Positions 13,354 through 54,500 of a DNA stretch of 64,000 nt are shown one piece after another. A model generated the notes under the pieces. That model worked only from the letters and a program-made list of their open reading frames with translations. It had not been told where the DNA came from and made no database searches. The stretch lies in sequence record NC_054910.1; one strand, 5' to 3'. A program made the translations under genes and the position numbers. This stretch comes from Escherichia phage EcNP1. Each line of letters begins with the position of its first letter. Position 1 is the first letter of the stretch.

Positions 13354-14554
13354 ATTTTGTAATAATGTCAAACTGTTCTTTAAAGCAGAAGCTTGAATCT
13401 TGATGCTGATACAAAAATTCATAAGCTTTTTCACGTTCGCGGTCATAAAGAGCTCGGTCAGATGACAGTTCTTTAATACGTTCAAATGTTAATTCCATGT
13501 CATTTTCATCAAACCAAACGATACCGCTATCATGAGAAATTAATGGAGTATTATCAACACGGAATTTTAAATTTTCGCCCGTAGATTTCCAAAATACTGG
13601 AATTGTTCCACATGCACCAAGCTCGAGATGAGTATATTCTAAAGAACGTTGTAGATATTTTTTATCTAATTTACTCAGCTGATAACCAAATCCGGATTTA
13701 CTCATGCGTTCAAGCATTTCGCTATTTACATAACGATCAAGAATTTGCGTTGGCAAATTAGGAGCAATTTTAATTTGGTCTACTTGATGAAGACGATAAT
13801 ACTCGTATGGAATTCCTTTTTCTTTAATAGGAATGAACGCTGGAGAACGTTCCAGACCTTCCATAATAGTACTTAGTCCTGCAGGTTTAAGATGTTTTTC
13901 GTGAAAATCAAACATCTGATAAAAGCCTTTCCATGTAGTAGTACGACCAATCCAACGATTGATATTCATGTTAATTTCAGAAACATCTTTCCAGTAGGTT
14001 GATCGAACCTTCGCAATATCCATAGGAGGCTGAAAGTTATATACGGTCGGTGCTTCTTCAATATCATCAAACAGTGAAACAGTTTCTGGATACCATTCTT
14101 TCATTAAAACTTTATTAAAATCACCATTATCAGAATGGCTAAAAATAACATCAGCTCGACGAACAGTTTCTTCTAATCCCAAATTTCGGCGTAAAGAAAG
14201 AGAAGAATGGTCATGCTGATAAACTACAACACGAACCGAAGGTTTAATGTTATCAATAATTTTTTTATAGTTATTAATGATGTCTTCTTCTACTGAAGTA
14301 GCAGGAACTGAATTGATAATTAGAATATCACAATCATTTACCAGCTTAAGTGTTTTATCGTATTCTTTTGCCAATAAAACCGGAATTGAAAATGACTTAT
14401 AATCATGTGCGCAATTACGAGTAAATGATTTATCTTTAGCATAAACCAAAGTTACTTCATGACCATTTTTAATAAACCAATCACGTTGCTCAAGAGAAAA
14501 TTTAGTTACACCACAACCTTCAAGACCTCGAGCCATAAAAATACATACTTTCAT
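13352..14554 (-). CDS. a-gt: DNA alpha-glucosyltransferase
   Basis: 400 aa, near-identical to T4 alpha-gt as recalled (MRICIFMARGLEGCGVTKF...). Confidence 0.95.
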   Translation of the reverse strand: MKVCIFMARGLEGCGVTKFSLEQRDWFIKNGHEVTLVYAKDKSFTRNCAHDYKSFSIPVLLAKEYDKTLKLVNDCDILIINSVPATSVEEDIINNYKKIIDNIKPSVRVVVYQHDHSSLSLRRNLGLEETVRRADVIFSHSDNGDFNKVLMKEWYPETVSLFDDIEEAPTVYNFQPPMDIAKVRSTYWKDVSEINMNINRWIGRTTTWKGFYQMFDFHEKHLKPAGLSTIMEGLERSPAFIPIKEKGIPYEYYRLHQVDQIKIAPNLPTQILDRYVNSEMLERMSKSGFGYQLSKLDKKYLQRSLEYTHLELGACGTIPVFWKSTGENLKFRVDNTPLISHDSGIVWFDENDMELTFERIKELSSDRALYDREREKAYEFLYQHQDSSFCFKEQFDIITK

Positions 14555-26943: not shown

Positions 26944-27834
26944 TTAAGATTTAAGTAAATCAACAATTTTAATTAACTTTTCACGCTCAGATTTAGCTTT
27001 ACTACTCAATCCAGATAGTCTGAAAATTTCATCATCATATTGTTGAATAGAAATATTCAGCTCTTCAATCTGCTTATTAAAATAATCAATTTGTTCAGAA
27101 TGTTTTTCGTTACTACGAACCGGTACAGGTTTTGTAGGCAATTTAGTTGAACTGGATTCATCCGGGCGATAAATTAAAATACAACTTGAACCAATAGGGC
27201 ATTTAGCACCAGACGTATATTCTAATGTTCCAGCTTCTTTTAAAACTTCAAAAGCTAAACAGAGATGATGCCCCATATTAGCATAATCTGTAGAGTGAGC
27301 TCTGATGTAATAATCATCTCCACGAATACTAAATTTAAAGCATTTAAGGTCTTCTGTATTATTGGTCTTAAAAATCATTTGTTTATCTAAACCTTTAGCT
27401 AATCGAGCGCCTAATGCTAATAATCGTCTTTGATTTTCCCACAAATCCGCTATCATTTGATCGAATGATAATTTTGGCATCAGTCGACCATAAAGGTCAT
27501 ATCCTTTATTATAATTACGAAGGATTTCACTCGCGTTAATACGAGACAATGCTCCAATTTTATTAAGGGCTTTCATAATGCGATTAGATAAACTCATTCC
27601 AGATCCGCTTGTTCGCTGCAAATGTTTTTCTAATCCAAATCCAATATCAACTTTAAACTTATCTAAAATTTCGGCATGAACATCTTTATCAATAACATTC
27701 AAATCCAAAGTTGGGTTAAATCTATGAAAAAATTTATCTGGCTCTCCACGACGAAGTACAGTCCATTCATTCATCATTTTTTTATTAACTAATGATTTAA
27801 TTACTGCATTGACATTATTAATTACTACTGACAT
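26944..27834 (-). CDS. Hypothetical protein with C-terminal coiled coil
   Basis: Internal start MSVVINN with RBS GAGGAAAAT, removing overlap. Confidence 0.72.
   Translation of the reverse strand: MSVVINNVNAVIKSLVNKKMMNEWTVLRRGEPDKFFHRFNPTLDLNVIDKDVHAEILDKFKVDIGFGLEKHLQRTSGSGMSLSNRIMKALNKIGALSRINASEILRNYNKGYDLYGRLMPKLSFDQMIADLWENQRRLLALGARLAKGLDKQMIFKTNNTEDLKCFKFSIRGDDYYIRAHSTDYANMGHHLCLAFEVLKEAGTLEYTSGAKCPIGSSCILIYRPDESSSTKLPTKPVPVRSNEKHSEQIDYFNKQIEELNISIQQYDDEIFRLSGLSSKAKSEREKLIKIVDLLKS

Positions 27835-42148: not shown

Positions 42149-42149
<1 letters not shown>
42111..42149 (-). promoter_or_regulatory. T4-type early promoter
   Basis: Plus aatgtatagtatca...agtaaac (42141-42147). Confidence 0.65.
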
Positions 42150-42951
<802 letters not shown>

Positions 42952-46928: not shown

Positions 46929-46953
46929 AAAAAGCCCTATCATTTAGATAGGG
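46929..46953 (-). terminator. Rho-independent terminator
   Basis: Minus RNA CCCUAUCUAAAUGAUAGGG followed by CUUUUU, after 46962 stop. Confidence 0.65.
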
Positions 46954-46961
46954 ATTTAAAA

Positions 46962-47525
46962 TTATTTATCTAGTTTAGTTATTATAGCTTCTGCGGCAGC
47001 TTTTAGCTTAGATGCAGTGTTAATACGATTTTTAATTTCAGTATACGCATCGCCAAGAACATCAAGGCTATCAGAATAAACACTTACACTATTGCGTTCG
47101 CTATTTGAAATAAAACCTTTAGTTTTACGATCAAAATCGGTGTACACGTCTTGAAGATCACGGGCAGCCTTCTTTGCATCATCCAATGCATCAAGAGCTT
47201 TATTCAAAGCATTAACATATTTTTTAGTGTCAAACATATTCTTAGAAATTTTAACAGGTGCACGTTCAGGAGTAGCTAAGGCAGATTTAGGAACATGAGC
47301 GCCAGATGCCAATTTCTTAGAAATTTTGAAAAACGCTTTATTGAATTTATTTTCTTGACTCATCGTAAAAGAACTATTATCGATGTTATACATTTCAATA
47401 GCTTTAGCTTTCCACTTAAGAAAATCGCCACGGTCTTTTGGGTCTAATTGAAAGAATACTTTAGTAAGATCTGCTTCAGACGGTAATTTTGCTGCTTCGG
47501 TCAAAAATTCGGCATAGGTTTTCAT
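46962..47525 (-). CDS. Internal-protein-like protein with CTS (MKTYAEFLTEA)
   Basis: 187 aa; RBS AAGGA; CTS-like N-terminus. Confidence 0.75.
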   Translation of the reverse strand: MKTYAEFLTEAAKLPSEADLTKVFFQLDPKDRGDFLKWKAKAIEMYNIDNSSFTMSQENKFNKAFFKISKKLASGAHVPKSALATPERAPVKISKNMFDTKKYVNALNKALDALDDAKKAARDLQDVYTDFDRKTKGFISNSERNSVSVYSDSLDVLGDAYTEIKNRINTASKLKAAAEAIITKLDK

Positions 47526-47615
47526 TTAAAATCCTTGAAATAATTTATCGGTTGGTTATTAATTATTTATTACTTTGTTATTATCCGCAACAGCATTCTC
47601 TATGTGATTCAAACT

Positions 47616-47642
47616 AAAAAGCCCCAACCTTTCGGTCGGGGC
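47616..47642 (-). terminator. Rho-independent terminator, GNRA tetraloop (repeat copy 1)
   Basis: Minus RNA GCCCCGACCGAAAGGUUGGGGC followed by UUUUU. Confidence 0.75.
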
Positions 47643-47650
47643 TAAGAATG

Positions 47651-48123
47651 TTATTTGATTTGTTTAGCAGACCAAATGCGGTCTTTAATAATTTTTTGGA
47701 TGTCTTCAACATACTCTAGGTCATGAGCATGTGGGTTGTCTTTGAAACTATAAGCACGGGCTAACTTTTGGCCTTCGGTTTTGATTACTAAAAGCTCTTT
47801 AAGGATAGCTTCATATTTAGCGATAATTCCTTTAACAATATTTTTTTCTTGTGCAGCTTTAGGATCTGCTTTAGGAGCAGGTTTACCGGAAGGTTTTTCG
47901 AAAGCCGCACCAGTAGCAACCAGGCTTTTCCAGGCGGTGGTAACATAGTTACCCACAAAGCCTTCAGCTCTCATATCGTCGTAGAACTTGTACCTGGATT
48001 CGTCAGAAGCATCTTTATAAGAATATTTACCAGCTTTAATAGCAGCAGTTGCTACAGCGCGAACATCTGAAGCGGATGCTTCATTTAACACCACTTCATT
48101 TAAAATTGAGCATATGATTTCAT
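47651..48123 (-). pseudogene. Internal-protein-like gene disrupted by frameshift
   Basis: ATG 48121-48123 with RBS AGGAAA encodes MKSYAQF then TAA; 147-codon ORF continues in another frame; ~14-nt tandem duplication at junction. Confidence 0.45.
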
Positions 48124-48162
48124 CTTATTTCCTGTTTTAATTCGTGATTTAATACACTACTA

Positions 48163-48170
48163 TATTTATA
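48163..48170 (-). promoter_or_regulatory. Late promoter TATAAATA
   Basis: Plus tatttata between terminator copy 2 and the disrupted Ip-like gene. Confidence 0.55.
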
Positions 48171-48172
48171 CT

Positions 48173-48199
48173 AAAAAGCCCCAACCTTTCGGTCGGGGC
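48173..48199 (-). terminator. Rho-independent terminator, GNRA tetraloop (repeat copy 2)
   Basis: Identical to the hairpin at 47616-47642; ends the tRNA/stable RNA transcription unit. Confidence 0.75.
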
Positions 48200-48251
48200 T
48201 AAGCCTTGCGGCAACCTTGTCGGGGTTCCACCTGCTAAGGCAAGTGTTTGT

Positions 48252-48343
48252 ACGAAACGCCGGGATTTGAACCCGGTTATTAAGCAGTTGACGCTACTCA
48301 ATATTTTTAAAAGGCCATATCTCGACCATATCCGAACGTTCCG
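48252..48343 (-). ncRNA. tRNA-like stable RNA candidate
   Basis: Perfect T-arm CCGGG-UUCAAAU-CCCGG and a 7-bp acceptor-like stem with one G-U pair; no clean anticodon arm; no ORF >=60 aa in 48203-48511. Confidence 0.3.
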
Positions 48344-48511
48344 TCAAAAACGCTACTCGGCTTACGGCAAAGATATTTCCTCGAATCGATAATTCGGTGC
48401 GCCGTTTCTGCTGTGATGTAAGAGGGCATCAACAAATCATAAAGATTTATTAACGCAATTCCTTACCCAGGGAACATCAGTCCGACGACTTACCGGTAGC
48501 GACCCGGTTTC

Positions 48512-48862
48512 TTAATATTCTTTTAAAGCATCAATTTGTTCACGGCGTTTACGCCATAAATCAATTGCTTCATACGCAGATTCAGCATTTCGAATTGGAC
48601 GGCATTTATATAAAGACTTGTGATTTTGATATTGTGTAGATAACGGAATTTTATCTAAAAGGTCTTTACGTTCAAAATATTCGTAACCATCTAAACCAAA
48701 TGAACGATTTTTGAGAAATTGCCAATGACCATATTCGTTTTCGACATAAACATAATCTGCATGCTGATAAAGTAAATTAATTACACGTTCAGAAATAACA
48801 GTGTCATTATGATTAAAATAGAATGTTAAATCATGAACTACTAAATAAACATTACCTTTCAT
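48512..48862 (-). CDS. Hypothetical protein
   Basis: ORF track 116 aa; RBS GAGGAAAAT. Confidence 0.65.
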   Translation of the reverse strand: MKGNVYLVVHDLTFYFNHNDTVISERVINLLYQHADYVYVENEYGHWQFLKNRSFGLDGYEYFERKDLLDKIPLSTQYQNHKSLYKCRPIRNAESAYEAIDLWRKRREQIDALKEY

Positions 48863-50093: not shown

Positions 50094-50504
50094 TTAACCT
50101 CTATCAACAATAGCATGAGTATGAGCATTTACGATTTGCCACCAGTCGAAACGATTGGAACCATACTCTGGTTTATTTTCATTTTCTTTAATGATATCAC
50201 GCAGTTTATCTTCTGTTTCAGCATACGCAATCAAATCATCATATCCACCACAAGGATAGTAATTATCGCCTGCGAACAAAAGAAAATTTACTTTAGATGG
50301 GTCTACATAATAATGCTCTTTAGGATATTTAGTTCCTTTCCAATCAGTTACTTCAACATAACGGTAAGAAAATCCATTTTTACTTTCAACCCAACTCCAC
50401 GCTTCAAAAGGAGTATTAAAAACTCTATCAGGTATTAAATTACCTTCAAAATGAGAAGGATTTGCATAATCCCCAGCATAAACATAATATTCGTTAATAT
50501 TCAT
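50094..50504 (-). CDS. Hypothetical protein
   Basis: ORF track 136 aa. Confidence 0.68.
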   Translation of the reverse strand: MNINEYYVYAGDYANPSHFEGNLIPDRVFNTPFEAWSWVESKNGFSYRYVEVTDWKGTKYPKEHYYVDPSKVNFLLFAGDNYYPCGGYDDLIAYAETEDKLRDIIKENENKPEYGSNRFDWWQIVNAHTHAIVDRG

Positions 50505-54048: not shown

Positions 54049-54500
54049 TATGCCCCCTTAAAGCCAAGAGCTCGTAATCCATCTTCTGTTAAAATTCTAA
54101 ATTTTATTCCACGCTTTTCAGCTAAAGATTGCGCTGCTTTCCATTTGTCAGTATTAACTGAATATGTATAAATTTCATTCATAAATCTTTTCTTCGCTGC
54201 AGTTGTTAGATGTGCTGGTTTAACTGGTGGTTGTGTTTCTTTTTTAGGTTTTATTTCAATAAAAAATTCTTGTCCAGAAGAATCTTTCATCCAAATATCC
54301 ATGAAGTATCTACGTTTTTTCCCTTCTGCATTACAAAAATAAGGAATTACTGCCGTTTCACTACCCCATGCAATAATTTCTGGATTTTTATCTAACCATT
54401 CAAAAAAGAATTTTTCCCAATTTGATCTATACGTAATTTTTTTAGGGTCACCTCTATATTTTGATATATTTTTAGGAACCCATTTTCCAGAATATGCCAT
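54048..54500 (-). CDS. 4: Head completion protein gp4
   Basis: 150 aa, T4 gp4 size and position; late promoter upstream. Confidence 0.92.

Follow-up and report, generated by a model that had tools for sequence, protein, structure and literature searches.

The rnaC–e.8 interval of EcNP1

We analysed a 64,000-nt stretch of the genome of Escherichia phage EcNP1 (NC_054910.1; the window, below), in which two small minus-strand genes occupy the interval between the stable RNA genes and e.8. Upstream of both lies a homologue of rnaD and rnaC, the genes for stable RNA species 2 and 1 of T4 (48204–48512, minus strand), which was recognized by alignment with T4; the segment 48512–48168 is 95.7% identical to the rnaD-rnaC-terminator segment of T4, and the rnaD/rnaC region matched no Rfam model at the gathering threshold. 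Immediately beyond rnaC, a terminator scan located a stem-loop, AGCCCCGACCGAAAGGTTGGGGCT, with a T tail (terminator 1, 48172–48200, minus strand). It natively terminates the tRNA/rnaC unit, and T4 and SP21535 each have a single copy at the same place. On the other side of the RNA genes, a 116-aa ORF (phrog_3355; 48512–48862, minus strand) separates tRNA-Arg from the rnaD homologue; T4 has tRNA-Arg right next to rnaD, with no such ORF between them, and in F13076 the ORF is likewise absent and a homing endonuclease is found slightly further upstream, between tRNA-Met and tRNA-Arg.

The first gene of the insertion has its own expression signals. A T4-type late promoter box identified by its match to the consensus, TATAAATA (48163–48170, minus strand), ends 39 nt upstream of an ATG, and the Shine-Dalgarno sequence of this true start, AGGA (48130–48133, minus strand), forms a duplex of −4.3 kcal/mol with the anti-Shine-Dalgarno sequence. 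An identical box in SA21RB carries a T4 late promoter annotation, and the late promoter and terminators have been annotated independently in relatives. At the downstream edge of this cassette, the terminator scan found an exact copy of the first stem-loop (terminator 2, 47615–47643, minus strand), the identical 24-nt stem-loops lying at 48200–48177 and 47643–47620. A first-pass annotation of this DNA, made from the letters alone, had described a late promoter with a good ribosome-binding site inside a terminator-flanked cassette, and these features bear out that description. The second gene (46962–47525, minus strand) encodes 187 aa, matches EcNP1 gp092 exactly and has a capsid-targeting-sequence (CTS)-like leader of its own, MKTYAEFLTE; its N terminus, MKTYAEFLTEA, had been read correctly in the first pass. 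A third terminator (46935–46953, minus strand), supported by both the terminator scan and the comparison with T4, has a different stem with the same GGGCTTTTTGGTA tail and marks the downstream junction of the two-gene insertion relative to T4.

In T4, rnaD, rnaC, and their terminator run directly into the region upstream of e.8 with no gene between (the window segment 46953–46400 is 93.5% identical to that region), whereas EcNP1 and many relatives carry a two-gene insertion of about 1.2 kb at this slot and SP21535 carries the first gene only. The presence/absence junctions of T4 and SP21535 both fall within the stem-loop terminators. In its organization, the cassette resembles modular shuffling mediated by PeSLs, the units of a stem-loop and an early σ70-like promoter described in T4-like phages (Arbiol 2010; Comeau 2014, PMC4122927): like PeSL cassettes, this module is bounded by near-identical stem-loop terminators, and its presence/absence differences map exactly to them. 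The attached promoter, however, is the late TATAAATA box rather than an early σ70-like one, and no early-type promoter was found at the stem-loop junction.

Reading frames at the break

On the minus strand, the ATG at 48123 opens a frame of only seven codons, MKSYAQF, that closes with TAA at 48102–48100 (48100–48123 in all). The gene body (47651–48094, minus strand) is out of frame with this start, lying in the −1/+2 frame relative to it and staying open for 147 codons from a GTG at 48094 to the stop at 47651. Both the short frame and the 147-codon ORF had been noted in the first pass and are as stated there. In the EcNP1 record, the body is annotated from the GTG at 48091 as gp093, with a 146-aa product that exactly matches QCQ57116.1/YP_010068046.1, both from the EcNP1 record only; a look-up of this product in the contig index returned no match. 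The CTS, as sequenced, is cut after residue 7 and detached from the body.

The five closest annotated relatives, Nami, F13076, HZ_ZJUN4, G50, and SA21RB, each have a single 474-nt coding sequence (157 aa) at this place. When aligned with them, the junction reads CAATTTTTAAATGAAG in the relatives and CAATTTTAAATGAAG in the window. All 23 related loci that we read directly carry a run of five T (CAATTTTTAAATG), spanning codons Phe7 (TTT) and Leu8 (TTA), where the window has four (48105–48102, minus strand). Because a single inserted T converts the window reading to MKSYAQFLNEVVLNEASASDV..., identical to the Nami protein, the lesion is a contraction of this run from five T to four at 48105–48102. 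A 91-nt query across the junction found no exact (100%) match to the four-T form among 377 phage records. Three phages with two coding sequences annotated under the junction (sutha, ESh32, and T-01) were considered as further split alleles and rejected; the gene is intact in all three, and the extra coding sequences are spurious small ORFs called in the rnaC region.

Apart from the deletion, the EcNP1 gene differs from the 474-nt Nami gene by one synonymous substitution (R44, AGG versus CGG), and the gene body is otherwise intact, with no further decay. Since this synonymous change is the sole other difference from Nami within the gene, the lesion, if real, must be very recent. What breaks the gene is a one-base, slippage-type, nonprogrammed homopolymer deletion, whether genuine or miscalled; the 146-aa gp093 of EcNP1 is a mis-annotated remnant of the 157-aa gene; and the EcNP1 allele, as sequenced, is null for the candidate packaged protein.

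At the lesion lies a 15-nt repeat in two copies. Copy 1, TTAAATGAAGTGGTG (48089–48103, minus strand), encodes L-N-E-V-V in the intact frame and is kept in the 157-aa alleles; copy 2, TTAAATGAAGCATCC (48074–48088, minus strand), encodes L-N-E-A-S and is seen both in the window and in relatives. The copies are identical at 10 of 15 bases and in frame, and between them they supply two L-x-E protease motifs. In relatives, the repeat encodes LNE(V/A)V followed by LNEAS, and the two-copy form occurs in the intact genes of Nami, F13076, ZJUN4, G50, SA21RB, and many others. Copy 1 is absent from a second group of alleles, those of SP21535, SYGD1, and LH2, in which the gene is 459 nt long and encodes 152 aa starting MKSYAQFLNEASASDV; one-copy (152 aa) and two-copy (157 aa) forms are thus both natural. 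To judge from these alleles, the repeat is an older, in-frame, polymorphic feature of the gene.

Competing accounts of the frameshift

The first-pass annotation had attributed the break to 14 extra nucleotides, read as an imperfect tandem duplicate of the next 14, and had advised comparison with relatives. That comparison, with its 23 five-T loci, upholds the frameshift and overturns the duplication. It is true, as claimed, that removing 14 nt restores the frame: deletion of 48102–48089 gives MKSYAQFLNEASASDV..., an N terminus identical to that of the natural 152-aa alleles. Because the repeat is conserved and the lesion is one T, however, those 14 nt are simply the 15-nt repeat minus the deleted base. 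Aligned with a 14-nt offset, the sequence agrees with itself at only 5 of 14 bases; the actual unit is 15 nt, lies in frame, and is kept in the intact genes of relatives; and the closest relative differs at the site by exactly one base. We therefore give a recent 14-nt tandem duplication that disrupted the frame practically no credence. Hardly more credible is programmed recoding, by frameshifting, bypassing, or transcriptional slippage, that would join MKSYAQF to the downstream frame. Its attractions are a stop placed directly after a U-rich codon and a hairpin beginning 2 nt past that stop, and the junction shares with the T4 gene 60 bypass a stop immediately following the would-be take-off codon and a hairpin nearby; unlike gene 60, it lacks a matched pair of take-off and landing codons and any conservation, and in its relatives the gene is in frame. 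The split frame is not conserved, all 23 related loci having five T and a single ORF. A −1 shift is needed, yet the zero frame reads CAA UUU UAA without an X XXY YYZ heptamer, and the slip would require Phe-tRNA to pair with AUU. A +1 slip leads to K and then a stop, and a hop to the next Phe codon (UUC) remains in frame 0 and yields FAL before another stop. The hairpin itself folds with z = −1.89, a value equalled by 9 of 200 shuffles, and its pairing bases differ in G50-type relatives; a run of four T is too short for known transcriptional slippage. With the arrangement in none of the 377 records, no slippery site, and no productive landing codon, the recoding option raised in the first pass is rejected. 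It is also very unlikely that the downstream ORF functions as an independent gene, translated from the GTG at 48094 or 48091 into a cytoplasmic protein lacking a CTS. Its frame stays open for 146–147 codons, and the TAA only 5–8 nt upstream could allow some reinitiation. Against this, the two GTGs have no Shine-Dalgarno sequence (+0.4 and −0.5 kcal/mol, compared with −4.3 kcal/mol for the true ATG), the arrangement is found in no other phage, and the product would be without a CTS. Moreover, frame 0 holds three successive mini-ORFs: after the TAA, ATGs at 48099 and 48084 open dead-end frames encoding MKWC and MKHPLQMFAL, and the second of these has the better Shine-Dalgarno sequence (−3.7 kcal/mol). 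Useful translation of the remnant is accordingly unlikely on the signals that can be read here, and the resulting protein could not act at injection, because without a CTS it would not be packaged.

The remaining choice lies between a mutation and a miscall, the two of the first pass's three options (pseudogene, assembly error, or recoding) that stay live. An undercalled T in the homopolymer, in a phage that truly has five T and an intact 157-aa gene, is a serious possibility, although we think the weight of evidence lies somewhat against it. The four-T allele is present in 0 of 377 related records and 0 of 23 inspected loci; the exact 146-aa product is known from one deposited genome, that of EcNP1; and the rest of the gene is a single synonymous change from Nami, an absence of decay that an artifact also predicts. 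Our literature search found no publication describing the sequencing of EcNP1, the phage after which Tequatrovirus ecnp1 is named; Nami is assigned to the same species. Aligned over the whole window, the two are 99.8% identical, with 115 substitutions and four indel events: a T6-to-T5 change at approximately 1069–1074, in the spacer between the Shine-Dalgarno sequence and ATG of a uvsX-like recombinase gene; a 1-nt intergenic change at approximately 34420; the T5-to-T4 change in the broken gene, which is the only coding frameshift in 64 kb; and, at approximately 51421 in a 57B-like gene, an in-frame difference in the copy number of a 9-nt tandem repeat (unit ATGGAACAT). The contraction near 1074 is rare among relatives, the best full-length matches there having one extra T and one record reaching at least 99% identity to the window, and, as a second single-base loss from a T run, it could hint at a homopolymer error mode. 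On the other hand, only 2 of the 411 homopolymer runs of 5 or more in the window differ from Nami, which argues that the assembly is otherwise clean and not full of homopolymer errors. Random errors would be expected mostly in coding sequence, the bulk of this densely packed genome, whereas two of the four indel events are intergenic and a third keeps the frame, a pattern that fits selection rather than random error, and the lone coding frameshift in 64 kb falls in a dispensable gene class. Natural frameshift alleles of the same gene family are, in addition, common in independent assemblies. On balance, we judge a genuine mutation somewhat likelier than a base-calling error, and we lean modestly toward the view that the EcNP1 stock used for sequencing had very recently acquired a true loss-of-function mutation.

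Such an event has a familiar counterpart in the classical A-run hot spots of T4 rII and the Streisinger slippage model. The mechanism is alike, with loss of a single base from an A/T run in a dispensable gene; the EcNP1 case differs in being known from one deposited sequence. As a separate observation on the comparison with Nami, 81 of the 115 substitutions lie within the first 8 kb of the window (the region of uvsX, beta-gt, gene 42, and DNA polymerase), a clustering more suggestive of a patch recombined in from another phage than of uniform divergence.

The frameshift alleles found elsewhere map to a different tract, a run of seven A (47841–47847, minus strand; GAA AAA AAT, E93-K94-N95) just after the linker between the two predicted domains. 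An eight-A allele in an ENA metagenome contig gives a product ending ...QEKKYC* (93–97 aa), and six-A alleles in SfPhi01 (LC465543), PP355091, and several ENA and Logan assemblies give ...QEKIS.KEL...KSF* (108–111 aa). The six-A form occurs on two N-terminal backgrounds and the eight-A form on three (loci L021–L027); together they come from several samples, including megahit, SPAdes, and Logan assemblies, and they keep the CTS and the N-terminal domain. Further truncated family forms are P0006 and P0043. From the alleles compared, it is evident that natural phages have lost or trimmed the gene repeatedly, and the real-mutation reading for EcNP1 is therefore modestly favored. In the zero frame, the seven-A tract reads A_AAA_AAT, which formally qualifies as a −1 slippery heptamer as well.

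The window seems to avoid long runs. Only four A/T runs of 7 or more were seen in 64 kb, where approximately 32 are expected from mononucleotide shuffles, and one of the four (14260–14266, 27777–27783, 47841–47847, and 54437–54443) is inside the broken gene; for runs of 5 or more there is no such depletion (404 seen against approximately 322 expected). That the T5 tract in the leader and the A7 tract at the linker act as mutational switches, a "contingency locus" in a virulent phage, is an idea we regard as improbable. Several independent run-length variants are known at the A7 tract, and EcNP1 is the only variant at the T5 tract. Were the idea correct, the switches would turn off an injected anti-defense protein, or trim it to its N-terminal domain; the injected arsenal would then carry standing variation, with the EcNP1 allele as one off state.

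The intact gene as a candidate internal protein

The first-pass description of the gene as internal-protein-like, with a capsid-targeting N terminus, is supported by the leader MKSYAQFLNE in both the intact reading and the relatives. The T4 CTS comprises the first 10 residues of IpIII, in which residues 4 and 7 are mainly responsible for targeting and residues 8 and 10 for processing, and gp21 cleaves after L/I-x-E (PMC9026906). In MKSYAQFLNE, Y4 and F7 match the targeting residues and L8 and E10 the processing residues, and gp21 sites are predicted at L8-N9-E10 and again at L13-N14-E15. Family members less than 50% identical begin MLKFNEFLAE, MLEYSEFLKE, or MKFKEFLIE, all retaining L/I-x-E; because CTS-like N termini persist below 50% identity, the leader is under selection. 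The gene is probably a T4-type internal protein gene, with a capsid-packaged and host-injected product, by analogy with the T4 Ips.

Five CTS-like leaders are present in the window: those of the IpIII homologue (92% identical to the T4 protein), the IpI homologue (99%), the ipII-slot protein, the broken gene, and its neighbor. The ipII-slot gene (42149–42430, minus strand, 93 aa) is homologous to T4 IpII in the leader only. Its product and that of the broken gene have a common extended propeptide (39% identity over 31 residues, E = 3e-5), which in the ipII-slot protein also contains two L-x-E sites.

We propose that the intact 157-aa gene would be transcribed from the late TATAAATA promoter, that residues 1–10 (MKSYAQFLNE) would direct the protein to the prohead core, and that cleavage by gp21, the prohead protease, would follow one L-N-E motif or both. 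On the model of T4 Ip1–3, the mature protein would then be injected and would probably act against host defense. In EcNP1, the loss of one T from the Phe7–Leu8 run would stop translation after MKSYAQF and so leave the body without a start, a Shine-Dalgarno sequence, or a targeting peptide. A literature search found no report of packaging, processing, or ejection of the 157-aa protein; every record inspected labels it, like its 187-aa neighbor, "hypothetical protein".

The family itself is narrow and T4-like-phage-specific, with 11 clusters in a set of 5.8 billion proteins, and a full HMM search of 1.84 billion representatives returned only 10 matches. IMG/VR contributes eight loci, all intact. 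Pfam has no family for the 157-aa protein, and PHROGs places the gene in phrog_2280, where its function is unassigned. The AlphaFold model of an intact homologue (pLDDT 72.8) is all-helical: a disordered 15-residue propeptide precedes a confident N-terminal bundle (residues ≈17–75), a low-confidence linker (≈76–87), and a C-terminal helical hairpin (88–154). Fold searches with this model against BFVD and the PDB returned family members and noise only, with no relative in the PDB. One further sequence, P0010 (94 aa, from a Logan contig), is a hybrid whose last 31 residues are the C terminus of the internal-protein family and whose N-terminal part resembles a trna.3-like 136-aa ORF at 50094–50504 of the window (…NFLLFAGDNYYP.GGY…RDIIKEN). 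The two parts join at a short ...KEN/KDN-PHAH similarity, and P0010 reflects either recombination between genes or a chimeric assembly.

We considered whether the broken gene and its 187-aa neighbor are tandem paralogues, given that phrog_2280 matches both strongly and over their full length (≈1e-53). This was rejected: by BLASTP, the similarity is confined to residues 1–10, and hhalign gives the mature parts a probability of 2%. Because of this low hhalign probability, phrog_2280 appears to merge two families that have the leader alone in common.

The same architecture characterizes the known internal proteins: Ip1, Ip2, and Ip3, each an injected inhibitor of a different GmrSD type IV restriction enzyme, have a common leader but no other similarity (PMC12373910). 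Read as a gene, the broken locus is like T4 IpI, IpII, and IpIII in its 10-residue leader of the MKTYQEFIAE type, with Y4, F7, L/I8, and E10, as well as in its L/I-x-E motif, late expression (here from the promoter match), and small size. Like the T4 Ips, which are nonessential and variably present among T-even phages, it has the pattern of a dispensable gene, being absent from T4, occurring in slots with one gene or two, and having several natural truncated alleles; and the lack of similarity past the leader between the broken gene and its neighbor is what is seen among the Ips. It differs from them in its locus, which lies between rnaC and e.8 and is empty in T4, in a mature part for which neither the Ips nor the PDB offers a relative by sequence or fold, and in a second L-N-E propeptide site provided by the 15-nt repeat. 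A further parallel is the Ip polymorphism of T-even phages, with reportedly roughly 10 Ips (Repoila et al. 1994, cited by PMC12373910 and PMC4122927): there, as here, leader-bearing genes in hyperplastic regions are interchangeable, and each phage has a set of its own. The Ip loci that Repoila and colleagues dealt with are reportedly those around ipI, not the rnaC–e.8 slot. On these likenesses, the gene is a candidate for an unannotated member of the known leader-bearing internal-protein class, and its product is a candidate injected anti-defense factor.

The frameshift itself carries little weight; its practical value lies in a corrected annotation and in a pair of phages that differ in the state of the gene. 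EcNP1 (off) and Nami (on), at 99.8% identity, form a near-isogenic pair for testing what the gene does, and several hundred Tequatrovirus records contain DNA similar to that considered here. Because Ip1–3 each inhibit a different GmrSD enzyme (PMC12373910), the broken gene and its 187-aa neighbor are, on that precedent, candidates for further subtype-specific anti-restriction factors.
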